From Nitrospiraceae bacterium (lineage in GTDB: Bacteria > Nitrospirota > Nitrospiria > Nitrospirales > Nitrospiraceae): 64,000 bases of DNA. This document shows positions 5,527 to 60,098 of the stretch, one piece after another. A model generated the notes under the pieces. That model searched no databases. It was not told the origin of the DNA and saw nothing but the letters and a program-made list of their open reading frames with translations. How positions within the stretch are numbered: the stretch's first letter is position 1; each line of letters opens with the position of its first letter. The DNA lies in contig JBBIQV010000005.1 of the NCBI GenBank assembly GCA_037442105.1, positions 1 to 64,000 of the forward strand. Reading direction: 5' to 3'. Position numbers and translations under genes: made by a program.

Positions 5527-8493
5527 ATGATGAAAGCGTGGCTGCTGGACGAGATGTTTCAATTCGATCGGCTGGCGTTAAGGATCGAGGGAGGCCAGGA
5601 GGAATGGGGGCCCGGGGATTCTGTGGCTGAAGAGGAGGAACTTCCTCCTCCGCCAACCGGGGTCAAGGCCAAGCCTGGCAATGGCCGCATCACTCTCACC
5701 TGGGATCCTGTGCCGGACGCCATGTATTACAACATCTACTTCATGACCTCGAAAGGCGTCCAGATCAAGTTTTCCGAACTCACCCGCCCCATCGCCGGCC
5801 CGGAGGATTTCAAAACCGTCATCGGCGTGAAGAAAGATAAAGCCACCTGCATTGAAGGCCCCTCCGCTCCCTATGTCCACGACGACCTTGCCAACGGCTC
5901 TTGTTACCACTACGTGGTGACCGCGGTGACGCCGAAGGGAGAAAGCCATGAATCGGATGAGGTGATGGCGATTCCTTCGCCCTACCTGCTCACGCAGGTC
6001 ATCGGCCAGGAAGGGGTGGACGACGGAGAGTTCAGTTCCCCGACGGGCATTGCGCTCGACAAGGATGGCCAGATCTATGTGGCCGATACGGACAACCACT
6101 CTATCCAGAAATTCGACAAGGATGGAAAATTCCTGGCGCGGTGGGGCGGGGAACCGAGTTCTGAGGAAGGACAATACTACTATCCGCGCGGGCTTACGAC
6201 CAATGCCGACGGCCATGTCTATGTGGCGGACAGCGGGAATAACCGGGTGCAAAGGCTGGATGCCGGCGGCGCGCCCATGAAGAGTTGGGGAAAATTCGGC
6301 TTTGCCTGGCGCGGAGCCGACATGGGCAAGTTCGATGTGCCGTGGGGGATCACGACCGATCAGGACGGCAACATCTACGTGTCGGACACCAGCAATGCCC
6401 GCATCCAAAAATTCAAGGGCGACGGGACGCCGCTGCTGAAGTGGGGGCGCGATGGGAGCTTCGACGGTGCGTTCTTCTTTCCCCGTGGGATCGCCGTTGA
6501 CTTCGTCGGAAATATCTTCGTGGCCGATGAGGGGAACAACCGCATTCAGAAGTTCGATGCGCGCGGGAGCTTCCTGGCCAAGTGGGGACGGGAGGGCAGC
6601 GGACCCGGGCAGTTCAAATCGCCGTGGGGTGTGGCCTGCGACGCGCTCGGCAATGTCTACGTGGTCGATCAGGGCAACCACCGCATTCAGAAATTCGACG
6701 GGAACGGGACATTCCTCTGCGCCTGGGGCAATCGTGGGAAAACGGAAGGGCAGCTCAATTTCCCCGCGGGCATTGCTGTGGATAAGGAAGGATGCGTGTA
6801 CGTCGTCGATAGCGGCAACAGCCGCATCCTCAAGTATGTGCCGACTGAAGAGGAGATCAATCGAGGCAAGGAAGATCAGCGGCCGAAAGTCATGACCCAG
6901 CACCCGGCGCCGCGGAGCGTCGCGGTGAAAGCAGGCGACACCGAAACATTCCTGAGCTGGATGGATGTGCCGGGGGCCGCCTCCTACAATCTCTACTTCC
7001 AGACGCAAGCCGGGGTGACCATCCAAGCTGCGACCAAGATCGAAGGCGTGACGAGCCCGTTCACGCATGCGGGCCTCACCAACGACATTCCCTATTTCTA
7101 TGCGCTGAGCGCGGTGTACGAAGGTGGGACAGAGAGTGCCCTGTCGGACGAGGTGACCGCCACGCCGGTTTTGATCGATATGACGGCTCCGCAGACTCCC
7201 AATGCGGTCATCAACCACGGGGCTTTTATGACCAATACGCCGGAAGTCGTGGTGACGATTTCCGCAACGGACGTGGACACGGGAGTCGGTGCCTACTTTA
7301 TTTCCGAGAATCCGATGACACCCGTAGCAGGGACGCCAGGATGGGTTGAGGTTGAGCCGGCCCATAAGTTCGGTTCGACCATCCCGTTCATTCTGTCGCC
7401 GGGCGACGGCCAGAAGACGATCTATGTCTGGTTCAAAGACGTCGGCAACAACGTCTCGACTCCGGCGAGCGCCACCATTCTCGTCAACACGTCGGGCTAT
7501 CTCTGCGTGTCGAAATGGGGCAAGCCGGGCCGCGGCGCCTCGTTGCTCCACGGGGGTGAGTTTACGGCGCCCATGTATGGTTTGGCCATCGACCAGCAGG
7601 GCGGCCTGTTTGTGGTCGACAACGGTAACAACCGTATCCAGAAATTCGACAGCACCGGGAACTTCATCATTCTTTGGGGCAACTTCGGCAGCGCCAACGG
7701 CAACTTCCATAACCCCACCGGCATCGCCTGCGATGGCAAGGGAGATGTGTATGTCGTCGATACGAACAACCACCGGGTGCAGAAGTTCGACGGCAAGCTC
7801 GGCGGGTACATTCTGAAGTTCGGGTCGCGCGGCAACGGCGAAGGGCAGTTCAACGCGCCTTGGGGTATCGCGATCGACCGCGTGCGGGGCTATATCTATG
7901 TTGTCGACAGCGCCAATTTCCGTGTCCAGAAGTTCGATATGACCGGTGAGTTCATCATGTCCTGGGGCAGTTTCGGCAACGGTGACGGCCAGTTCTACTT
8001 TCCCCGCGGGATCGCAGTCGATCAGACCGACGGTACGGTCTATGTAGTGGACATGGGCAATCACCGTATCCAGAAGTTCGACACCAGCACGAACGTGCTG
8101 CCGCAGCTTCTCACGAAGTGGGGCGGCAGTTCGGAAGCCGGGCACGCCAGCAGCCCTTTGGCTCAGGAAGCCGGACAGCTCCGTTCGCCGTGGGGTGTTG
8201 CAGTTGACGGCAATGGGGACGTGTATGTGACCGACACGGGCAATCACCGGGTTGAAAAGTTCGATCGTGAAGGCAACTTCATCACGCAGTGGGGCGGTTT
8301 CGGCAATGGCGACGGCCAGTTCAACTTCCCGTATGGCATCGTCATCGACGCGCGTGGGAGCGTCTTTGTGGTGGACAGCGCCAACACGAGGGTCCAGCAA
8401 TTCATGCCGGCGGATGAAGGCAGCGAGCAACTCCAGGAGCAGGCGGAAATGGCTGCCGAACTGGAGAAGGCCGGGGGTGCGGCGAAGTCGTAA
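5527..8493 (+). CDS. Large FN3 plus double NHL-repeat (six-bladed beta-propeller) protein
   Basis: About 12 repeats of G.F..P.GIA.D..G.VYV.D..N.RIQKFD in two blocks; two FN3-like segments (ITLTWDPVPDAMYYNIY and LSWMDVPGAASYNLY). Confidence 0.9.
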   Translation: MMKAWLLDEMFQFDRLALRIEGGQEEWGPGDSVAEEEELPPPPTGVKAKPGNGRITLTWDPVPDAMYYNIYFMTSKGVQIKFSELTRPIAGPEDFKTVIGVKKDKATCIEGPSAPYVHDDLANGSCYHYVVTAVTPKGESHESDEVMAIPSPYLLTQVIGQEGVDDGEFSSPTGIALDKDGQIYVADTDNHSIQKFDKDGKFLARWGGEPSSEEGQYYYPRGLTTNADGHVYVADSGNNRVQRLDAGGAPMKSWGKFGFAWRGADMGKFDVPWGITTDQDGNIYVSDTSNARIQKFKGDGTPLLKWGRDGSFDGAFFFPRGIAVDFVGNIFVADEGNNRIQKFDARGSFLAKWGREGSGPGQFKSPWGVACDALGNVYVVDQGNHRIQKFDGNGTFLCAWGNRGKTEGQLNFPAGIAVDKEGCVYVVDSGNSRILKYVPTEEEINRGKEDQRPKVMTQHPAPRSVAVKAGDTETFLSWMDVPGAASYNLYFQTQAGVTIQAATKIEGVTSPFTHAGLTNDIPYFYALSAVYEGGTESALSDEVTATPVLIDMTAPQTPNAVINHGAFMTNTPEVVVTISATDVDTGVGAYFISENPMTPVAGTPGWVEVEPAHKFGSTIPFILSPGDGQKTIYVWFKDVGNNVSTPASATILVNTSGYLCVSKWGKPGRGASLLHGGEFTAPMYGLAIDQQGGLFVVDNGNNRIQKFDSTGNFIILWGNFGSANGNFHNPTGIACDGKGDVYVVDTNNHRVQKFDGKLGGYILKFGSRGNGEGQFNAPWGIAIDRVRGYIYVVDSANFRVQKFDMTGEFIMSWGSFGNGDGQFYFPRGIAVDQTDGTVYVVDMGNHRIQKFDTSTNVLPQLLTKWGGSSEAGHASSPLAQEAGQLRSPWGVAVDGNGDVYVTDTGNHRVEKFDREGNFITQWGGFGNGDGQFNFPYGIVIDARGSVFVVDSANTRVQQFMPADEGSEQLQEQAEMAAELEKAGGAAKS

Positions 8494-15015: not shown

Positions 15016-15390
15016 ATGAAGAGGTTCATAAGTATGCTTGTGACAGCGGGAATGATCACGTTTGGCTGTAGTGTCTTTATTCCGAAGGAGATGCGCTATC
15101 TCAGATCAGCGCAGAATCAAGCTACGCAAGATGAAGTGCGGCAGGAATTGGGCGAACCTCACTTGACGGCATCGACCCAAACGGGGGAGGCCGTATGGGT
15201 CTATGAAGTACGGGGACTTGAGCCAGGCAGTCAGAGTAGTTGGTCCGCGTTTGGCTCCTGGTGTGACGAATACGTGCTGACCTTCGACACACAAGGTACG
15301 CTGCGCCGCTGGACACACAAATCCCAGAAACACGGCGGCGAGACAATGCCGACATATTGCGTGGACGATGGATTCAGGTCTGCGTTCTGA
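15016..15390 (+). CDS. Small lipoprotein, BamE/SmpA-like, paralog 2
   Basis: Lipobox-like TFGC; shares WCDEYVLTFD..LRRWTHKS..HGGE.MP.YCV with paralog 1. Confidence 0.75.
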   Translation: MKRFISMLVTAGMITFGCSVFIPKEMRYLRSAQNQATQDEVRQELGEPHLTASTQTGEAVWVYEVRGLEPGSQSSWSAFGSWCDEYVLTFDTQGTLRRWTHKSQKHGGETMPTYCVDDGFRSAF

Positions 15391-15471
15391 GCTGTGACGG
15401 TCTCGCCTTCGCGGTTGGCCTCGATCAGGCCATTGAGGACAGGGTTCCGCACTTTTTGTGGCCAGCCCGAG

Positions 15472-16521
15472 TCAGCCCCCGCCAAGTGTAATGGGCAATG
15501 TCAGCTCGATGTCTTGCCGTAGCACGCGCAGCATGATCCGTTGCCCAGGTGTCGTGCGCTCGATCAGGTAGTTCTTGAGTTGAGCCGCATCAATAATATC
15601 GGTCCCATCAATCGCCAGAAGGATGTCGGTCTTCTGAATGCCGGCCGATTTCGCAGGTTCACTCACATCTCGCACAGCGATCCGCCACCGCGTCTCTACC
15701 TTGACCGCCATCATGTGAATGCCCAGCCTGGAGAAGGTCAACGGTTTGCCCTCCAGTGCTGCGTTTACGATCCGGTGGGCCAAGCGGCCGGGAACGGCAA
15801 AAGCAAATCGACTGCAATGGGCCTCCTCCGACTCCTTCTCGGTTTGGAGGATGGCGTGCATCACCCCCACGATCTCACCGGCGTTGTTGAATAGCCCGCC
15901 GCCGGAGTTTCCGCTGCATACCGAGAGGTCTGCCTGAAGAAGGCGGGTGTCCACGGTTTGGAGAAAAGTGTTGATGTTGCCGATCCGCCCGAACGCGATG
16001 GCCGGCCCCCAGCCAAGAGGGTAACCGACGGTAAAGACCTGATCGCCTGGCGCGACGTCGGCCTCTGCAAAAGCTGCGGTGGCGACCAGCGCGGCACGAT
16101 GTTTCTCGGCTATGCGATAGACGACGACATCCATGTATGCACTGTCTCCCTGTAATTCCGCGGGCAGTTCGTGTAAGTCCGTTGTCATTACGCTGATGCG
16201 CTTAGGAGCGACCTTCTGCCCCATCTCATTCCGCTCGACGGCATGCCTGGCTGTCACGATGTAACCGTCGCGTAAATGGAAACCGGTGCCGCGAATCGAG
16301 AAGCGGGTTTGGCGGTCGGTGTCTTTCGCTTCGCCGACCTCGTTCAGGATTCCTACCGTTGCGCGCTTGGCGCGCTCCAGTGCGTCGGCGAGTTGGGAAG
16401 AAGAGATAGAGTCGCCCTTTACCATTCCAGGGTTCAATTGGCACAGCAGGGCGACAAGCAGGGCCGTGAATCGCGTGTGCCGGCGCGCGGATTTCTTTTC
16501 TCGTGATGATGACATGGCCAT
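15472..16521 (-). CDS. Trypsin-like serine protease with one PDZ domain (HtrA/DegS-like)
   Basis: GTGF..IVTARH, GYPLG, CSGNSGGGLFN catalytic serine motif, C-terminal PAKSAGIQKTDILLAIDG PDZ; hydrophobic N-terminal segment. Confidence 0.88.
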   Translation of the reverse strand: MAMSSSREKKSARRHTRFTALLVALLCQLNPGMVKGDSISSSQLADALERAKRATVGILNEVGEAKDTDRQTRFSIRGTGFHLRDGYIVTARHAVERNEMGQKVAPKRISVMTTDLHELPAELQGDSAYMDVVVYRIAEKHRAALVATAAFAEADVAPGDQVFTVGYPLGWGPAIAFGRIGNINTFLQTVDTRLLQADLSVCSGNSGGGLFNNAGEIVGVMHAILQTEKESEEAHCSRFAFAVPGRLAHRIVNAALEGKPLTFSRLGIHMMAVKVETRWRIAVRDVSEPAKSAGIQKTDILLAIDGTDIIDAAQLKNYLIERTTPGQRIMLRVLRQDIELTLPITLGGG

Positions 16522-16924
16522 CCTTTCGTGAGCGGAGCCTCCAGTATAGTCCAGACCCCGACTGTTTGTTGCGAGCGTAAGTGAAAAGTTCAAAAATCGT
16601 CAGGTTTATGGACGGTGAATGGACGAGTTTATGCACTTGATGAGATGGGGTGAACCCTCCTTACGCGCCGATATTCTCGTGTGAAAGTAATTTCCCGCCG
16701 TTGAGAGAAATTCCTCAAAGTGCTTGTCAGAACGCAAGTTATTTCGGCATGGCCTTTGCTGGAGAACCGCCGTTCCCATCGTAGCCACTTTCGCATGTTG
16801 GCTCACACGATCCTGTCCATACTCCAAAATGCGCTGTGCATTTTGCTGAGAAACTTGCCAGATTTCCAGAACCATCTACACTTGGTGAATGCATCATCAA
16901 CGATTAAATCGCAAGGAGGACGGT

Positions 16925-17659
16925 ATGAGGTCACGAATCTCTGCGTTGAAGGTTGGCAGCGGGTTGCTGCTCTCCATCGTACTGTTCGCCGCACCACTCA
17001 AGGCAGCTGATGAAGCCGAAACAGCAGAGCTTCTCATCACCCTGCTCAAGGTGGGACGCGGCGTCGTCTCAGAACATCAGGCCCTGATTAACGACGCCGC
17101 CAAAGGAAATAAGGGATTCACCGATGAGTTTCTGGCAAGCCAGGTTATTGAGCGTTTCAAGAAGCAGACGAGGATCGATCTGAGCCGTCCGAGTGCGACT
17201 CCTCAGTCAGGGGTGCTGTTGAGCTTGCTCGAATCGGAAAAGGAAGTGGTGGCGGAAAGCCAGCCGGTCATCAACAAGCAGGGGGTTGCCTTCAAGGGGT
17301 TCTTGCCGGCGGTGTTTGCCAGGAAGTCGGGAGAAAAATTTTATCGGAAGACGGGTGTCCGTCTGAAATTGACAAGCCTCGACTACCGATTTCCAGGAAA
17401 CAAGCCGGACGACTTTGAATCTGAGGTCCTGAGAATGTTTGCCGACCCACGCCATCCGAAAGGGCAACAGTATACCAAGGCGACTATCGTCGGGGGGAAG
17501 CCGGTCCTGCGTGTGATGGACCCTGAGTACGCCGGAGCTTCCTGTCTGACTTGCCATGGGGGACCCAAGGGTGAGCGTGATGTCACCGGGATGAAGAAAG
17601 AAGGATGGAAGGAAGGGGAACTCGCGGGCGCCATCAGCTTAGTGATGCCCATGAAGTAA
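16925..17659 (+). CDS. Secreted monohaem c protein (DUF3365/Tll0287-like)
   Basis: Signal peptide ending LKA, NKPDDFE, CLTCH haem motif, G.K.GELAGAIS C-terminus; AGGAGG RBS. Confidence 0.8.
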   Translation: MRSRISALKVGSGLLLSIVLFAAPLKAADEAETAELLITLLKVGRGVVSEHQALINDAAKGNKGFTDEFLASQVIERFKKQTRIDLSRPSATPQSGVLLSLLESEKEVVAESQPVINKQGVAFKGFLPAVFARKSGEKFYRKTGVRLKLTSLDYRFPGNKPDDFESEVLRMFADPRHPKGQQYTKATIVGGKPVLRVMDPEYAGASCLTCHGGPKGERDVTGMKKEGWKEGELAGAISLVMPMK

Positions 17660-17743
17660 TTCGCTCGCTGGGCGTACCCCGGTAGGCGGAACGATCAAGA
17701 CAAGAATCGGTGACTGATCCAAAACGACAAGGAGGAACGAAAT

Positions 17744-18106
17744 ATGAGCAAGATCGTCGTCGTCGATGATTCCTATGCCGAGCTGCAAATGATCGAGGGA
17801 TATCTGAAATCGGTCAATCACTCCGTGGTGTCCTATCCGAACACCGACAAGCTCGAAGATAAGCTTGCAGCCGATAAGCCTGACTTGATTGTGTTGGATG
17901 TCGTCATGCCGGGACGGAACGGGTTTCAGACCTGTCGCGATCTCAAGAACGATGATCGATTCAAGAATATTCCCATTGTGTTATGCACGTCAAAGGGACA
18001 GGAGAGCGACAAGTTTTGGGGACAACAGCAAGGCGCGAACGGCTACGTCGTAAAGCCGTTCAAAGCGGAAGACCTTCTTGCTGCCGTCAAGCGGGCTCTG
18101 AACTGA
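17744..18106 (+). CDS. Single-domain CheY-like response regulator (PilH-like)
   Basis: VVDDS, LDVVMP, CTSK..ESDKFWG.QQGA.GYVVKPF. Confidence 0.92.
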   Translation: MSKIVVVDDSYAELQMIEGYLKSVNHSVVSYPNTDKLEDKLAADKPDLIVLDVVMPGRNGFQTCRDLKNDDRFKNIPIVLCTSKGQESDKFWGQQQGANGYVVKPFKAEDLLAAVKRALN

Positions 18107-53884: not shown

Positions 53885-53950
53885 AGCGGTTGTTATGCTA
53901 ACACGACCAGGGCTCCTCGGAGAAGAAACGGTTCGTCGGCGATGCGTTGA

Positions 53951-53979
53951 TTGACAGTAGTCGGTTGCTATGGTACTAA
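53951..53979 (+). promoter_or_regulatory. Sigma70 promoter immediately before the RAPP leader ORF
   Basis: Perfect TTGACA, 17 bp spacer, TACTAA with TG extension; ATG follows only 10 bp after the -10 box. Confidence 0.6.
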
Positions 53980-53989
53980 ATTCGCCCCT

Positions 53990-54322
53990 ATGAAATGGTC
54001 TCAACACATCTCGATCCTCGGGCAAGTCGGTCGGTTCTGGCTTGCGAGCAGTTTGGTGCTGCTCCTGCTGGTGCTGGCGCCGTTTGCGGTGGCACAGGAC
54101 GTCCACCATGAACTGGCAGCGGCCGATCAAGACGGGCATGAGCACTCCGATACGGACCTCTGTCAGTGGGTGCAGCATCACACCACCGGCTCGCTCGTCC
54201 TTGCGATTCCGCCGTTAGCCTCCTGGTCGCCGATCAGTGTGCATGAATGGGTTCCTGTCACAGTTCTCGTCTCCTCTTATTCCCTTTCCGTCGGGCCGTC
54301 CCGCGCTCCTCCACGCTCCTGA
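53990..54322 (+). CDS. His-rich exported leader protein ending in RAPP (DUF2946/CruR/CutF-like arrest peptide)
   Basis: Hydrophobic signal segment, HHE..DGHEHSDTDLCQWVQHH, C-terminal PSRAPPRS-stop; directly upstream of a TonB-dependent receptor. Confidence 0.8.
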   Translation: MKWSQHISILGQVGRFWLASSLVLLLLVLAPFAVAQDVHHELAAADQDGHEHSDTDLCQWVQHHTTGSLVLAIPPLASWSPISVHEWVPVTVLVSSYSLSVGPSRAPPRS

Positions 54323-54428
54323 CAAGCGAACTAATTATCGTGCGCTCTGCTGCGTCGGCGGACTCTGTCCGTTTTCTTCCGTGCGGACGCACGCTTCATT
54401 ATGGCTGTTCAGTGACCCGGAGGAACGG

Positions 54429-56849
54429 ATGCAAGGCCATGCATGGGTCAGCGTCTTATTGCTCTTTTCGCTTATCCTGACCGGTGTGATGGAAACTGCC
54501 ACGGCGGCAGCGAGCGAGAGGCGAACTATTACGGGATCGGTTCAGAACCAGGACCTGCGCCGGGTCCCGCAGGTGGTCGTGGAGGTTAAGGATCAGGAAG
54601 GGACGGTCGTGGCGACAGGAGTCAGCAACGATGCCGGCGAGTTTTCGATTGCGATCTCGAAGGAAGGGACCTATTCGGTCAGCGCCGTCCAGGAGACTTA
54701 CCGAAGCGAGTATGTCGTTCTGAATGTGGGGGCGGACCAGCCCAAGCCGGTCGTATTGACGCTGGCTAAGACAAAAGAGATTGCGCTGGAAGTGGTGTCT
54801 CCGTTGCCGCCTATCCAATACAAGGCGTCCAGCGAAACCTACTCGGTCAGCCGGAAAGAAATCGAAGCTCTTCCCCGGGGAAACAACAACGAACTGCATG
54901 ATGTGTTGATCACGATTCCCAGTGCGACCTATGGGGCGTTGAAGCAAGTCCATATCCGGCAGGACCATGCGAACCTTCAACTCCGCATCGACGGCGTCCC
55001 TATCCCGGACACCGTGTCTTCGACGTTCTCCGATGTCATCACACCTCGGGCGTGGGAGCGGGTCGATATCATCCTCGGCGGTATGGAGGCGCAGTACGGA
55101 AACAAGACGGCTGCGGTACTCGACATCACAACCAAGAGCGGGACCAAGCCGGGATTTGGGTCGCTTCAGATGTTCGGCGGGTCGAACCAGACGATCAATC
55201 CGTCAGTCGAGTACGGAGGTGCGGTTGGGGAGAAGTTCCGGTACTATGTGCTGCATAGTTACACGTCTACGAACCGGGGTATCGAGCCGCCGACGCTGGG
55301 CCATTCCGTGTTCCACGGGCAGAGCGAGCGGCAGCAGACATTCATCCGCGGGGACTATCAGCGCGACAACCGGAACAACTTCACCTGGCTGCTCCTGAAT
55401 TCCGTCGCCAAGTACCAGATTCCGACCACGCCGGGGTTGGACCTCGATCCGAGCGGAAAAATTCTACCGCTGCTTCAGGCGAGCCGACCGGGTTTTGCAC
55501 CGGTCGCGTCCCAGGCGATCGATGAATTCCAGAACGAGGACAATCAATACGGTCACATGGTATGGCGGCATGATGTGAACGCCAATAACTTCTTCGGTCT
55601 GGCCGGTTATGTCCGCCATACGCGGGCGACCTTCAAGACCGATCCCTTCAACGTGCTGGCTTATACGGCAAATCCGGCGGAACCGTTTTCCGCGGCGGAT
55701 CAAGACCGGAACGCCTATTCAGCCGGCGTCCGGCTGGACTATACCTACACGCCGACGAAGGAGCACTTGATCAAGACCGGATTTCAAATCGACCGGACGC
55801 AGGCCGTGAATAAGACGCGCATCTTCACATTTGCCGACGATGGAGCCGGTAATCCGACCGGCAATGTCCTCAACCTCAATGCGGACAACCGCTTGATCGG
55901 CTGGCGCCAGGAATTGTGGGTTCAGGATCAATGGACTCCCAGCGACCGTTGGACCTTCAACGTGGGCGTGCGCGGGGACGCCGTGCAGTATCTCCGGAGC
56001 GAAGGGCAGATCAGTCCGCGCGCGGGTGTGACCTACAAGTATAACCAGGCCAACGTCTTCCATGCATTCTATGGACGGCAGTTTACGCCGCCGAACCTGG
56101 AAGCGATCTCCTTTGCCAAACTGAATACGGTCGGCACCAAAGCCGCACCCGAAGATACGACGAACAACACCGTGCGCGCTGAACGGGCGCACTATTTCGA
56201 GGTCGGCAGTTACCATGCGCTCAACCGCTCCGCTACGTTGGAGCTGACCGGGTATTATAAGATCAGTCACTTCCTGTCGGATGCGGGGCAGTTCGGCACA
56301 ACACCGTTGCTCAACTATTTCGCGTTTGAACGGGGCTGGCAGCGTGGTATTGACGGAGCCCTGAAACTCCAGCTCATGGACAATCTGACTGCTCGCGGCA
56401 ACGTGGCGTGGGGGCAGTGTAAAGGCTACGGGCTGCAATCCGGCCACTTCCTCCTCGATGCCAAGGAGATCGCCGACATCCAGTCGCGCGGTGGTGTATT
56501 CTGTGATCACACGCAAATGCTGACGAGTTCCGCTGTCGTGAGTTATAAATTCAAGGAGCGGACGACGGTGACCGGCCAGATGCTGTTCGGATCCGGCTTG
56601 AGAACAGCGGCGGACGAGGATGCGAAAACCAATTCTACGCATAGTCCGTCGTATACGATTTATAATTTATCGATTGCTCATGTGATTCCGCTTCCGTGGG
56701 ATCAACAGAAATTTATGCTGGGCTTCGACGTGATTAATCTGCTCGATCAAAAATACTTCATCAATCAAGGAGAGGGCAGCATCGGGCTGGGCGTGGCTCA
56801 CGCCGGCATGCCACGGTCGTATTTCTTCAGAGGGCAGTGGTTCTTCTGA
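54429..56849 (+). CDS. TonB-dependent outer-membrane receptor
   Basis: Signal peptide, carboxypeptidase-regulatory-like N-domain, plug (IDGVPI..AQYG..AVLDITTK), SPRAG, NLLDQKY, C-terminal Phe; GGAGGA RBS. Confidence 0.92.
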   Translation: MQGHAWVSVLLLFSLILTGVMETATAAASERRTITGSVQNQDLRRVPQVVVEVKDQEGTVVATGVSNDAGEFSIAISKEGTYSVSAVQETYRSEYVVLNVGADQPKPVVLTLAKTKEIALEVVSPLPPIQYKASSETYSVSRKEIEALPRGNNNELHDVLITIPSATYGALKQVHIRQDHANLQLRIDGVPIPDTVSSTFSDVITPRAWERVDIILGGMEAQYGNKTAAVLDITTKSGTKPGFGSLQMFGGSNQTINPSVEYGGAVGEKFRYYVLHSYTSTNRGIEPPTLGHSVFHGQSERQQTFIRGDYQRDNRNNFTWLLLNSVAKYQIPTTPGLDLDPSGKILPLLQASRPGFAPVASQAIDEFQNEDNQYGHMVWRHDVNANNFFGLAGYVRHTRATFKTDPFNVLAYTANPAEPFSAADQDRNAYSAGVRLDYTYTPTKEHLIKTGFQIDRTQAVNKTRIFTFADDGAGNPTGNVLNLNADNRLIGWRQELWVQDQWTPSDRWTFNVGVRGDAVQYLRSEGQISPRAGVTYKYNQANVFHAFYGRQFTPPNLEAISFAKLNTVGTKAAPEDTTNNTVRAERAHYFEVGSYHALNRSATLELTGYYKISHFLSDAGQFGTTPLLNYFAFERGWQRGIDGALKLQLMDNLTARGNVAWGQCKGYGLQSGHFLLDAKEIADIQSRGGVFCDHTQMLTSSAVVSYKFKERTTVTGQMLFGSGLRTAADEDAKTNSTHSPSYTIYNLSIAHVIPLPWDQQKFMLGFDVINLLDQKYFINQGEGSIGLGVAHAGMPRSYFFRGQWFF

Positions 56850-56897
56850 AACCATAAAGGCTTAGGCTGAGGTCTAGGTTAAGGGGGGAGGGAATCG

Positions 56898-57344
56898 ATG
56901 TTCGTGCGTTACGCACTCTTGTGGCTGGTTGTGTGCCTCAACCTGAACCTCAGCCTTAGCCTGAACCTTGGCTTGGCCGCCGAGGGGGATCGCGCGACGC
57001 ATGAATCTGATCATGAAGAAGATGTGTTGGAACTGCCCGAAGTCCATGTCCATGGCCTGCCACTGAACAAAGACCAGCAATTCGGGCCTGTTCCCAAATC
57101 GACCCCTTGGCCACAAATTCCGTCAATGCTAGACGGCAAGGATCTGGATGACTGGATGAAAGCGCGCATGCTGGTCTCCAGGGATGCGAAGGTGACGGTT
57201 GTCGTGCTTGAACCGGCGAAGCATCGCGAACTCACCTTGGCCGGTATTGCGGCGTTGAGCAAGTGGACCTTCGATCCGCAGTTGAAAGGTGAAGATCCTG
57301 TCGATGGAGAACTTACCGTCCGCATCCATTTTCGCACTCGATAA
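56898..57344 (+). CDS. Short TonB C-terminal-domain protein
   Basis: AGIAALSKWTFDPQLKGEDPVDGELTVRIHF resembles TonB_C; N-terminal hydrophobic segment and HESDHEE; follows the receptor. Confidence 0.7.
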   Translation: MFVRYALLWLVVCLNLNLSLSLNLGLAAEGDRATHESDHEEDVLELPEVHVHGLPLNKDQQFGPVPKSTPWPQIPSMLDGKDLDDWMKARMLVSRDAKVTVVVLEPAKHRELTLAGIAALSKWTFDPQLKGEDPVDGELTVRIHFRTR

Positions 57345-57439
57345 GCCACGTCAATCGTCATTGGTCATTCGTCACACGAACGAATCGAGAGTCCGCTTAA
57401 CGGTTGACGAATGACGGTGGACGTTTTATCGTCGCTCTT

Positions 57440-58015
57440 ATGAACTTGGACGAGATACTTTTTCGCGCCGTCAACGGGCTGGCCGGTCGCGCTTCGGGTG
57501 TCGATGCGCTGATGCTGGCGGTTGCCGACCCCACGCTCCTCTGGGCACCTGGCATCTTGCTCGGTGGCTATTGGCTCTGGCTGAATTGGCGAGAAGTGAT
57601 GATCGCGGCGCCGGGTCTTGCCGGGACCATCGGTGCGAGCGATTTTGTCGGTGCCCGCATCAAAGACCTGATTGCCCGCCCACGCCCCTGTATGGTCTTG
57701 AGTCAGCTTCATCAACTTGAAGCCTGCGGCAAAGTCTTCAGCTTTCCCTCCAACCACGCCCTCAACACGGCCACGGCCGCAGCGTTCTTTCAGATACTCT
57801 ATCCGCGATCCGGTTGGGTGAGCTGGCCGATCGTGGCGCTGATCGGCTTTGCCCGTGTTTACATCGGGGCGCATTATGTCACGGATATCATCGGCGGCTG
57901 GCTCATTGGTGGGCTTTTCGGGGTTGGAGCCGCATGGCTCCTGCTCTGCTGGTCCCGGTTCAGAACCGCAAAGGCTGCCGCGACCTTTCCGCAGCTCTCC
58001 TCGACGGAGAAGTAG
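57440..58015 (+). CDS. PAP2-family membrane phosphatase
   Basis: KDLIARPRP, SFPSNH and ARVYIGAHYVTD. Confidence 0.9.
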   Translation: MNLDEILFRAVNGLAGRASGVDALMLAVADPTLLWAPGILLGGYWLWLNWREVMIAAPGLAGTIGASDFVGARIKDLIARPRPCMVLSQLHQLEACGKVFSFPSNHALNTATAAAFFQILYPRSGWVSWPIVALIGFARVYIGAHYVTDIIGGWLIGGLFGVGAAWLLLCWSRFRTAKAAATFPQLSSTEK

Positions 58016-58028
58016 CCCGCGTCTGTTC

Positions 58029-59000
58029 CTACCGCTCTCTCTCGACACAGGCGAGCAACTCCTCGCGACATCGATCCTGGTCATAGTCTCTGCCGATCAA
58101 AATGACCACCGGCTCCGGTTCATCGAGCAAAGTCACCGGCGCGATTGTGTTGGTGTGTGGAGGGAAAAGCTGGAACTCCTGAAGTTCCGACTCCTTGGTG
58201 AACCGAAAGAATCCCTTGGCTCGTTCGAGACCTTCCGGCAGTTGCGTGAGCCATCGGAGAAATCGTTCGCGGTCGAGCGAACCGGGTAGTTTTATGGTGA
58301 GTATCATGGGATGGCGCGGCTTAGGTTTCGCGAGGACGAATGAAAGAGATGACGACTCGCCGAACTCGACATTGGGTGGGACCGGCAGTGCCGCCCGTTG
58401 CAGCGGTTGAAGTAAGGCCGGTATATCCAGACGCGCGTGGCTGGTCTCCCAGAGGCGGGCGTACGGATTCTGTTCAAGCACGACGGTCTTGAACCGCTCC
58501 CAATGGCCCGGCACGTAGAGGTCTCGCTTGTTAAGAATCAGATCGTCGGCGTACCGGATCGAATGACGGGTGACAAGATCTTCGATCGTGCCCTCAGACG
58601 TTGTGACTGGATGCAAAAGCGCAATGATGCGCTCTAAGCGCGTAAGGCGTGAGACGTACACATCGGTCAGGCCGTCTACGACCTCGGCGGGGTCGGCCAT
58701 GCCGGAACACTCGAGGACGATCACGTCGGATGCATAGTCTTGCACGAGTTGGGCGATCCCCCAGGCGAGATCGTCCTTCGTGTCGCAGCACACGCATCCA
58801 CCGGCTAGATTGAGGACCTGTTCGGCTAAGGTTCCCGCGCGCGGCCCGTCGATACTGACGGCGCCCGCCTCGTTCATCAGCACACCGGTCCGGCGACCCT
58901 GTTGTTTCCAATGTTCGAGCAACCGCATGAGGAGCGTGGTTTTGCCGGCGCCGAGCGATCCGCACAGGACATAGAATGGAACCGGCTCTTTCATCTGCAT
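58029..59000 (-). CDS. COG0523 (CobW/ZigA-like) G3E metallochaperone GTPase
   Basis: GSLGAGKTT, NEAG, GGCVCC, ECSGMADP, LNKRDL and C-terminal RAKGF. Confidence 0.9.
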   Translation of the reverse strand: MQMKEPVPFYVLCGSLGAGKTTLLMRLLEHWKQQGRRTGVLMNEAGAVSIDGPRAGTLAEQVLNLAGGCVCCDTKDDLAWGIAQLVQDYASDVIVLECSGMADPAEVVDGLTDVYVSRLTRLERIIALLHPVTTSEGTIEDLVTRHSIRYADDLILNKRDLYVPGHWERFKTVVLEQNPYARLWETSHARLDIPALLQPLQRAALPVPPNVEFGESSSLSFVLAKPKPRHPMILTIKLPGSLDRERFLRWLTQLPEGLERAKGFFRFTKESELQEFQLFPPHTNTIAPVTLLDEPEPVVILIGRDYDQDRCREELLACVERER

Positions 59001-59076: not shown

Positions 59077-60018
59077 TCAGTGTTGAGCGTGTAGATGGTC
59101 GGCTAAGTGGGGGTGATCGGTCAACTGGTTCAAGTCGCAGTGGACTGCAACAGGGTGGCAGCCCTGCACTTCCATTTGAACGGTCACATGTTTGATCCCG
59201 AATTCGGATGCGACTCGCGCTCGAATGGTTTGGAGCAGCGCGTCCGTGAGGGCGTTGTCGTCTCCGTCCACCAGCACGTGACAGGTGAGCATGACGAGGC
59301 GAGGCTCAACGGCCCAGATATGAAGGTCGTGCACATTCCTGACGCCGGGGATCGATTCGATGGTTGCGGCGACGTGGGACGCGCTGATTCCGGGCGGCGT
59401 GGATTCCAGGAGTACCTCAAGTGATTCGCGGAAAAGCGGCCAGGCCCCTCGCACGATCGCGCCCACCACCAGCAAGCTGACCAGCGGGTCCAGCATGGTC
59501 CAGCCGGTCAACAGAATGAATCCGCCGCTGACGAAAACGCCGAGCGAGACCCAAGCATCGGATAGCATGTGCCAGAACGCGCTCTTGATATTAAGATCAT
59601 CCTTCGCTCCCCGCTGAAGCAACAGCGCGATACTGAGATTCGCGGTGAAACTCGCCAATGCGATGACCATGACCAAGCCGCCGGAGATCGGTACCGGATG
59701 GAGGAGCCGTTTGATGCTCACGAGACTGATGCCGACCGCGGTGAGGAGAAGCAGGAAAGAGTTGAGAAAGGCTGCCACAATCCCGGCCCGGTGGTAACCG
59801 AACGTGCGCGTTTCCGTCGCCGGTCGGGCGGTCAGAATATGGGCGTAGAGTGCAAGGAACAGAGAGCCTTGGTCGATGAGGTTGTGTCCGGCGTCGCTCA
59901 TCAGGCCGATACTGTCGATGAGGAGTCCGCCGATGAACTCAGCCAGGATGATTACGGCATTCAGCCCGAGCGCCATCCGCAATCGATCGCGCAGTTTACA
60001 GTAAGACGCGTTGTGCAT
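59077..60018 (-). CDS. Cation diffusion facilitator (CzcD/ZitB-like exporter)
   Basis: SDAGHNLID, TFGYHR, NIKSAFWHMLSD, VHDLHIW, HVTVQ and His-rich tail. Confidence 0.93.
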   Translation of the reverse strand: MHNASYCKLRDRLRMALGLNAVIILAEFIGGLLIDSIGLMSDAGHNLIDQGSLFLALYAHILTARPATETRTFGYHRAGIVAAFLNSFLLLLTAVGISLVSIKRLLHPVPISGGLVMVIALASFTANLSIALLLQRGAKDDLNIKSAFWHMLSDAWVSLGVFVSGGFILLTGWTMLDPLVSLLVVGAIVRGAWPLFRESLEVLLESTPPGISASHVAATIESIPGVRNVHDLHIWAVEPRLVMLTCHVLVDGDDNALTDALLQTIRARVASEFGIKHVTVQMEVQGCHPVAVHCDLNQLTDHPHLADHLHAQH

Positions 60019-60098
60019 GGGACTCAGTCTCGCATGGATCAGACACGGGAGCAAGCCGAGTTGTTGTGATGGACGGCGGCGAAGTCGCGTTTATGAGT

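Follow-up and report, generated by a model that had tools for sequence, protein, structure and literature searches.

Experimentally, metal-sensing arrest peptides are known only for copper, the two cases being CruR (published in 2022) and CutF (2023 and 2025). CruR (Bp2923 of Bordetella pertussis) is the prototype of the Pfam family DUF2946 (PF11162). Rho-dependent termination has been shown for CruR, and more than 2000 members of its family keep a spacing of 45 ± 2 residues between the Cys motif and the RAPP motif (PMC9426467). In vitro, CruR arrests translation, and its toeprint puts the P site of the halted ribosome at the first of the two RAPP Pro codons (Fujiwara et al. 2025, PMC12992588). 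The same study reported that proteomes show a strong avoidance of RAPP outside arrest peptides, that the first-described RAPP arrest peptides monitor protein localisation, and that small secreted RAPP/RGPP upstream open reading frames (uORFs) are enriched ahead of TonB receptor genes. For CutF of Rhodobacter capsulatus, a stall at a C-terminal proline motif during co-translational export was proposed to unmask a Shine-Dalgarno sequence (bioRxiv 10.1101/2025.02.05.636593). Here we describe a leader open reading frame (ORF) of 110 amino acids (aa) on the plus strand (53990–54322) of a 64,000-nucleotide (nt) stretch of DNA from a Nitrospiraceae bacterium (GenBank assembly GCA_037442105.1, contig JBBIQV010000005.1, positions 1–64,000; hereafter the window). 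We see about an even chance that this leader is a metal-sensing, probably zinc-sensing, ribosome-arrest peptide that controls translation of a receptor gene 106 nt downstream; from its sequence we infer arrest, metal binding and regulation.

The leader is composed of an export signal (residues 1–35), a His/Asp/Cys cluster (residues 39–64), a linker of variable sequence and fixed length, and the C-terminus SRAPP-RS-stop. The stop-to-stop frame begins at TTG 53951; translation likely initiates at ATG 53990 and ends at the stop codon TGA (54320–54322). By inspection, the N-terminus is of the export type: its basic n-region leads into a hydrophobic core and then into AVA|QD, a site conserved as LAPFAVAQD. 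The mature leader opens with DVHHELAAADQDGHEHSDTDLCQWVQHH, which contains six His and C58, the sole Cys of the protein; the codons of this predicted metal-binding cluster occupy 54104–54181. The predicted arrest site is formed by the RAPP codons CGC GCT CCT CCA (54302–54313, residues 105–108), which are followed by R-S-stop. The first-pass annotation had described a 110-aa ORF with an export segment, a six-His cluster, one Cys and a RAPP two codons before the stop; each of these features was recovered in the sequence, and the coordinates and Pfam domains bear out its statement that a TonB-dependent receptor lies 106 nt downstream. In an AlphaFold2 model of the leader (mean predicted local distance difference test score, pLDDT, 73.7), residues 5–46 form a helix, which is followed by a loop, a second helix (residues 55–65) and a coil (residues 66–110). 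This model, with a helix-loop-helix at the cluster and a coil from residue 66 to the end, would fit a metal-induced fold combined with a passive ruler.

By sequence conservation, the leader is a real, strongly conserved gene family of the order Nitrospirales. A word-indexed search returned 1044 relatives at E ≤ 0.01, and all of those with a named source come from Nitrospira or Nitrospiraceae; an exhaustive search yielded 81 representatives of the family at 50% identity. The leader ORF is therefore more than a chance frame, because it has more than 1000 database relatives and a conserved cluster and RAPP. We built a divergent alignment from the window ORF and 49 of the 81 representatives, omitting the other 32, whose match ended before the C-terminus. 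In this alignment, (i) H40, H52, D56, C58, W60, R105, P107 and P108 are invariant; (ii) D48, H50, S53 and L57 are conserved in at least 90% of the sequences; and (iii) the signal region and the linker are free to vary in sequence. The cluster and GPSRAPP show no variation among 41 close relatives. Both motifs were present in 176 of 200 database proteins, with RAPP in 154, RGPP in 18, RPPP in 3 and RSPP in 1; all 176 carry the Cys motif as C-x-W-[VIML], and the spacing from this Cys to the Arg is 43 residues in 162 of them and 44 in 12. In the remaining 24 proteins at least one of the motifs is missing, probably because the sequences are truncated or wrongly called.

How far apart the two motifs lie was also followed in the genomes. 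Relatives of the leader are encoded in 252 stretches of species-representative genomes, of which the best 80 loci were retained; together with the window, these give 81 Nitrospiraceae copies. RAPP is present in all 81 copies, and the distance from Cys to Arg is exactly 43 residues in all 81, with a linker of variable sequence. RAPP is followed by 2 residues in 74 copies, by 3 in 6 and by 6 in 1. We also fetched 20 loci from two sister families of the same order. The copies there have R[AGP]PP in 16 of 16, with a Cys-to-Arg spacing of 43 residues in 11 and of 44 in 5. Among 401 Nitrospirota genomes searched, 99 contain the leader family: 74 of 75 in the family of the window, and 22 of 40 and 2 of 2 in the two sister families; none was found in the other families sampled among these genomes. 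The first-pass annotation had proposed conservation of the His cluster and of RAPP among relatives as a check, and both are conserved, with RAPP in every Nitrospiraceae copy and the key cluster residues invariant in the alignments.

Comparison of the leader with CruR revealed that (i) both are exported small proteins encoded by the first gene of an operon, and in both an importer gene is controlled or predicted to be; (ii) in both, a stretch of constant length separates a metal-ligand motif from a C-terminal RAPP (45 ± 2 residues in CruR, 43 in the leader); and (iii) both are followed by a long spacer and then by a TonB-dependent receptor. The likeness in layout that the first-pass annotation had drawn is thus upheld by a spacing that is the same in all 81 copies and resembles that reported for CruR (PMC9426467). 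By contrast, CruR has a CxxC motif, whereas the leader has six His, a conserved Asp and one Cys; the partner genes of the leader indicate zinc, whereas CruR serves copper; and the spacer of the leader is G-rich and its RAPP codons pair with the next ribosome-binding site, so that unmasking is predicted in place of the Rho-dependent termination of CruR. The leader resembles CutF in that a stall during export, as proposed for CutF, would open an mRNA structure that hides the next Shine-Dalgarno sequence. CutF differs in having CxxxC and PPP motifs, in controlling a detoxifying oxidase, and in stalling when copper is present (bioRxiv 10.1101/2025.02.05.636593). The leader would control an importer, for which the opposite polarity is expected, and its arrest codons would themselves be the anti-Shine-Dalgarno element. 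With its single Cys, the leader contains neither the CxxC of CruR nor the CxxxC of CutF.

Membership in DUF2946, which the first-pass annotation had suggested checking with a hidden Markov model search, was not supported at Pfam's threshold. The Pfam DUF2946 model gave the window ORF 12.5 bits (E 0.26), below its gathering score of 23.7. It matched 21 of 50 members of the leader family at E ≤ 1 (best 0.0026), and the unrelated model RecA_dep_nuc did so equally well, with 19 of 50 (best 3.5e-4). No match to the DUF2946 model at E ≤ 1e-4 was found in 75 genomes of the family of the window, and it exceeded its cut-off in 1 of the 401 Nitrospirota genomes. A profile-profile comparison between the leader and the family of this sole true DUF2946 member gave a probability of 33% (E 4.5e-4), and the alignment places Cys on Cys and RAPP on RGPP with a gap-free linker. 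One DUF2946 cluster (score 0.95) was among the 30 nearest ESM Atlas clusters, which we treat as a lead only. The leader would thus work like CruR and CutF and is at best a remote relative of DUF2946.

The uORF class of Fujiwara et al. is closer, in that the leader is shorter than 300 aa, has a signal sequence, carries RAPP next to its C-terminus and precedes a TonB receptor gene. In its accessible portion, this survey describes no zinc-linked or His-cluster family and no mechanism for the uORFs, and Nitrospirota appear only in the legend of the proteome-bias figure (PMC12992588). We found no publication on a zinc-linked or Nitrospira RAPP leader in a search that did not extend to the supplementary tables of the survey, which may list members. 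The suggestion that the locus is an undescribed variant therefore stands in part: a zinc-linked family with a His cluster looks undescribed, whereas RAPP uORFs ahead of TonB receptors are already in print (PMC12992588). The leader family is probably a zinc-linked variant of the known class of RAPP arrest leaders.

The link to zinc comes from the operons of the sister families. In 12 of the 20 sister-family loci, the leader is followed by a porin-like protein of approximately 500–590 aa and by ZnuA, ZnuC and ZnuB. Among solved structures, this ZnuA is most similar to a Synechocystis zinc-binding protein (E 8.5e-26); their alignment matches His to His at three positions, which we take to be the zinc ligands. 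The nearest NCBIfam models of the importer are ZnuA, AztC, AztB and AztA, with MntC close behind, all under their cut-offs. In the other 8 loci, a receptor 56–63% identical to that of the window lies downstream of the leader, and a gene for a small TonB_C-domain protein stands next to the receptor in 4 of these. Neither the window nor the scanned sister-family loci showed any of the copper-linked partner families PepSY_TM, PCuAC, Sco, YcnI and CopC. In the window, genes for a COG0523-type GTPase and a ZitB-like cation diffusion facilitator (CDF) adjoin the leader operon, which we counted toward the zinc link. The leader is the first gene, and its partners comprise the receptor, TonB_C, PAP2, COG0523, CDF, ZnuABC, Fur-family and MerC genes. 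Because sister-family leaders head ZnuABC operons and no copper-linked partner was seen, zinc is favoured over copper, and the leader family is probably linked to zinc. The first-pass annotation had named zinc, nickel or cobalt in place of copper; the 12 ZnuABC loci support zinc, whereas nickel and cobalt gained no specific support.

The porin-like protein had no Pfam family match in 7 of 8 sequences scanned and a weak match to an OmpL-like porin in the eighth, and the one that was read (L117:7130–8911, minus strand) has a His- and acid-rich N-terminus. The porin-like protein may be a zinc-specific outer-membrane channel. In L122, an IS1595-type transposase gene (6451–7404, plus strand) parts the leader from the porin-like gene, its presumed target. 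In three sister-family loci (L113:4105–5547, minus strand, and also L114 and L116), the TonB_C gene is directly succeeded, on its own strand, by genes for a Fur-family regulator and two MerC-like membrane proteins; in L119 they lie approximately 3 kb beyond it. These genes may encode the regulator and the inner-membrane leg of the same uptake route.

The spacer between the leader and the receptor gene (54323–54428, 106 nt) contains two small hairpins (54357–54369 and 54380–54393) and ends with the Shine-Dalgarno sequence GGAGG (54419–54423) ahead of the receptor start ATG 54429. The Ala-Pro-Pro codons GCUCCUCC (54305–54312), that is, GCU-CCU-CCA, are an anti-Shine-Dalgarno sequence complementary to the Shine-Dalgarno sequence of the receptor, and UCCUCC (54307–54312) is paired with GGAGGA (54419–54424) in the minimum-energy fold. 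RAPP has CCT as its first Pro codon in 63 of the 81 copies, whereas CCT makes up 13.6% of Pro codons genome-wide. The spacers are too divergent for a trustworthy consensus fold, and each locus was therefore folded singly. The receptor start could not be placed in 10 of 76 receptor-bearing loci, where the spacer would exceed 200 nt; these were omitted, and the spacer measures 87–114 nt in the remaining 66. The Shine-Dalgarno sequence is predicted to pair with the codons from RAPP to the stop with a probability of 0.98 in the window and of 0.56 on average over the 66 loci, compared with 0.28 when the segment is shuffled. Blocking the footprint of a stalled ribosome lowers the predicted mean energy needed to open the region from the Shine-Dalgarno sequence to the start codon from 12.5 to 7.9 kcal/mol, whereas a mid-spacer control block leaves it at 12.4; a drop of 2 kcal/mol or more occurs in 51 of 66 loci with the footprint blocked and in 5 of 66 with the equal control block. 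The sister families, in which 14 of 16 leaders were scored and the starts chosen for L114 and L116 seem doubtful, show the same pattern (13.0 to 8.1 kcal/mol with the footprint blocked, compared with 12.8 for the control; 10 of 14 loci compared with 0 of 14). Two weak sites consisting of a hairpin followed by T residues were considered as intrinsic terminators in the spacer and rejected, the count being no higher than that in shuffled sequences (4 compared with 4.2).

These results make unmasking of the ribosome-binding site plausible as the mechanism of the leader. The ribosome would pause at RAPP, its P site occupied by the first Pro codon and its A site by the second, in the register toeprinted for CruR. 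At this pause, the cluster, which lies 47–68 residues back, would have just emerged through SecYEG into the periplasm; its position outside SecYEG at arrest rests on the lengths of the tunnel and the channel. The stalled ribosome would hold the anti-Shine-Dalgarno sequence inside, the ribosome-binding site of the receptor would open more easily, and the receptor and its TonB_C partner gene would be translated while the ribosome sits at RAPP. On binding plentiful metal, the emerging cluster would fold as a helix-loop-helix and thereby exert a pull that ends the arrest. After release, the ribosome would terminate and leave, CCUCC would re-pair with GGAGG, and uptake would be switched off. The polarity, in which metal releases the arrest, is assumed as in CruR because an importer is controlled.

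Taken as a whole, the leader may be a zinc-sensing nascent-chain switch and the first metal-sensing arrest peptide beyond copper, a reading that we hold with a little less than even confidence. A His/Asp/Cys cluster on a ribosome-attached chain would read periplasmic zinc, the Pro-Pro codons would serve as the anti-Shine-Dalgarno sequence, and the switch, transcribed from a near-leaderless and apparently unregulated promoter, would gate zinc entry at the outer membrane, by way of a TonB receptor or porin, and also the entire ZnuABC importer of the sister lineages. If true, a conserved zinc-linked family would make sensing during export a general way of reading periplasmic metals, and it would explain how zinc uptake is adjusted at this locus in Nitrospira, which are key nitrifiers that are hard to handle genetically. 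The family also offers a clean test case, with a 43-residue ruler, one Cys, few invariant ligands and an arrest motif that doubles as a start-hiding RNA element.

The genes downstream of the leader are as follows. The receptor (54429–56849, plus strand, 806 aa) contains an N-terminal CarboxypepD_reg domain, a Plug domain (27.6 bits) and a TonB_dep_Rec_b-barrel domain (69 bits), the latter two above their Pfam cut-offs; its substrate is likely a zinc species. The next gene (56898–57344, plus strand) encodes a TonB_C-domain protein of 148 aa. The first-pass annotation had called it a mini-TonB: the ORF was found, and its TonB_C match of 22.2 bits falls just short of the cut-off of 24.6 (the ortholog in L113 exceeds it, with 26.4 bits); it is likely not a classical energy transducer but a His-rich protein that partners the receptor in the periplasm. 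Its N-terminus is of the signal type, and the His/acid motif ATHESDH...HVHG ahead of the TonB_C domain is kept in at least 90% of 68 orthologs. A PAP2-family phosphatase gene (57404–58015, plus strand; Pfam PAP2, E 9e-21) may be the final gene of the operon. Two genes on the minus strand converge on the operon. One encodes a CobW/COG0523-type metallochaperone GTPase (58029–59000; Pfam cobW and CobW_C), which carries GCVCC and whose nearest NCBIfam models, a YjiA-type GTPase and ZigA, are both below cut-off. The other encodes a CDF exporter (59077–60054; CDF superfamily, 253 bits), whose best named model is ZitB, with 214.9 bits under a cut-off of 408 bits.

Gene context was counted over the 80 Nitrospiraceae loci, in each case over those long enough for the gene to be seen. 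All 76 loci with at least 600 nt downstream have the receptor after the leader, as the first-pass annotation would have it; the TonB_C gene is present in 61 of 63 loci, PAP2 in 58 of 61, the COG0523 gene in 56 of 59 and the CDF gene in 32 of 52. The conservation of His, Cys and Met in the receptor was of little use as a clue to the metal, the orthologs being too alike (mean top-residue share 0.79).

Several observations weigh against unmasking by the arrest codons or against zinc as the metal. The opening energy of the window itself drops modestly, from 13.6 to 10.7 kcal/mol, compared with 12.2 for the control; with the footprint blocked, the Shine-Dalgarno sequence is still predicted to be paired with a mean probability of 0.78, and the block lowers the pairing by more than 0.3 in only 10 of 66 loci; and the whole spacer folds no better than shuffled sequences (z = −0.70). 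Slow decoding, and not pairing, could be what selects CCT at the first Pro codon. Because the loci share ancestry, the counts overstate the independent support. The receptor has no sequence match to a known zinc receptor: phmmer against the PDB at E ≤ 1e-3 found no ZnuD or OprC chain, and only weak matches to YncD and PqqU. Unrelated genes (TatD, an NYN-domain gene and an amidase) are also conserved in the block that holds COG0523 and CDF, and synteny inside Nitrospiraceae is weak functional evidence because of these neighbours. Finally, a His/Asp/Cys site could bind copper, nickel or cobalt as well.

This last point leads to the rival in which the same switch senses copper, nickel, cobalt or manganese. 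Both characterised relatives, CruR and CutF, sense copper, and a site of His with one Cys would be plausible for copper or nickel; Nitrospira need copper enzymes; and COG0523 proteins and cluster A-I binding proteins serve other metals too, with MntC models scoring just behind ZnuA. Nevertheless, we consider another metal unlikely, given that the window and the scanned sister-family loci hold none of the five copper-linked families, that the linked binding protein is nearest to zinc ZnuA, including the three His-on-His sites, that the best permease and ATPase models are the zinc components AztB and AztA, and that separate RGPP leaders of the CxWxC type in the same genome (described below) could serve copper. 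Unmasking of the ribosome-binding site has its own rival, in which, as in CruR, the stalled ribosome blocks Rho loading and its release leads to Rho-dependent termination in the spacer. Among RAPP leaders that precede a TonB-dependent receptor, it is the only mode of action so far demonstrated (PMC9426467). The spacer is moreover long for an operon, and the ribosome-binding site is mostly paired even with the footprint blocked. The composition of the spacers, however, points the other way: they average 25.1% C and 30.5% G, with G exceeding C in 60 of 66 and C exceeding G in 6, whereas typical Rho loading sites are C-rich. Rho-dependent termination would also give the anti-Shine-Dalgarno complementarity and the CCT bias no role. 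We regard it as rather improbable as the replacement for masking, with which it could coexist.

The two other rivals dispense with metal-dependent regulation. If the leader product were a mature periplasmic metal-binding peptide that acts as a chaperone or shuttle for the receptor, RAPP would slow its synthesis or be incidental. The very strong conservation of the cluster is what a functional binding site would show, and the leader is co-transcribed with uptake genes; but the coil that makes up two thirds of the mature chain varies in sequence while its length is exactly fixed, a pattern that fits a ruler rather than a folded protein, and RAPP lies 2 residues from the stop in 74 of the 81 copies, although the motif is avoided in proteomes outside arrest peptides (PMC12992588). 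The pairing with the ribosome-binding site of the next gene would be left unexplained, and we find such a peptide very unlikely. A secretion monitor of the SecM/ApcA type, which would report Sec activity and not metal, has a precedent in that monitoring of protein localisation is the role of the first RAPP arrest peptides (PMC12992588). It is scarcely credible at this locus, where the downstream genes are for metal uptake, not sec or yidC, and the invariant part of the leader is the His/Asp/Cys cluster.

Upstream of the leader, a promoter-like site (53951–53979, plus strand) consists of a −35 hexamer TTGACA (53951–53956), a 17-nt spacer, and a −10 hexamer TACTAA (53974–53979) preceded by TGg; the TTG that opens the leader frame lies within TTGACA. 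This site presumably functions as the promoter of the leader. It ends 10 nt upstream of the leader ATG, with no Shine-Dalgarno sequence between; the predicted promoter thus adjoins the start codon, and the leader mRNA would therefore be nearly leaderless. Most of 73 related loci have a −35 element of the TTGACA or TTGCAA type in the same position relative to the start. The site was not listed by an automated consensus promoter scan, the last base of the −10 hexamer being A and not T. Inspection of the 73 loci by eye revealed no conserved palindrome between −35 and −10 and no conserved repressor-type palindrome in the promoter region. A Zur-type operator was considered at TGTTATGCTAACA (53891–53903), a perfect palindrome beside the tatD start, and rejected, since this sequence occurs only once in the genome and offers no regulon to build on.

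A conserved element (ATAGCGnATAT...GAAATATCCAC or AACGAAT...AAAAGTCCATA) lies 70–100 nt upstream of the −35 hexamer in many related loci and is absent from the window. It may belong to a divergent DAHP synthase gene, which in the two loci that were read (L017:5740–6798 and L063:5728–6789) occupies the opposite strand between tatD and the leader. Most other loci have a similar-sized gap between tatD and the leader; the window (53888–53989) and its closest relative, L004, have no such gap, and tatD abuts the leader promoter.

Elsewhere in the same genome, contig C40 (approximately 15170–17903, minus strand) contains three exported small ORFs in series, of 109, 101 and 103 aa. All three combine a His-rich stretch with a C-x-W-x-C motif and with RGPP placed 4–5 residues before the stop. 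The last of the three corresponds to L003:1495–1806 (minus strand) and lies between two genes for outer-membrane proteins of approximately 356–359 aa. The profile of the leader, built from the divergent alignment, matches one of the three ORFs with an E of 4e-5, and the three resemble a second set of arrest leaders, perhaps of a copper type.

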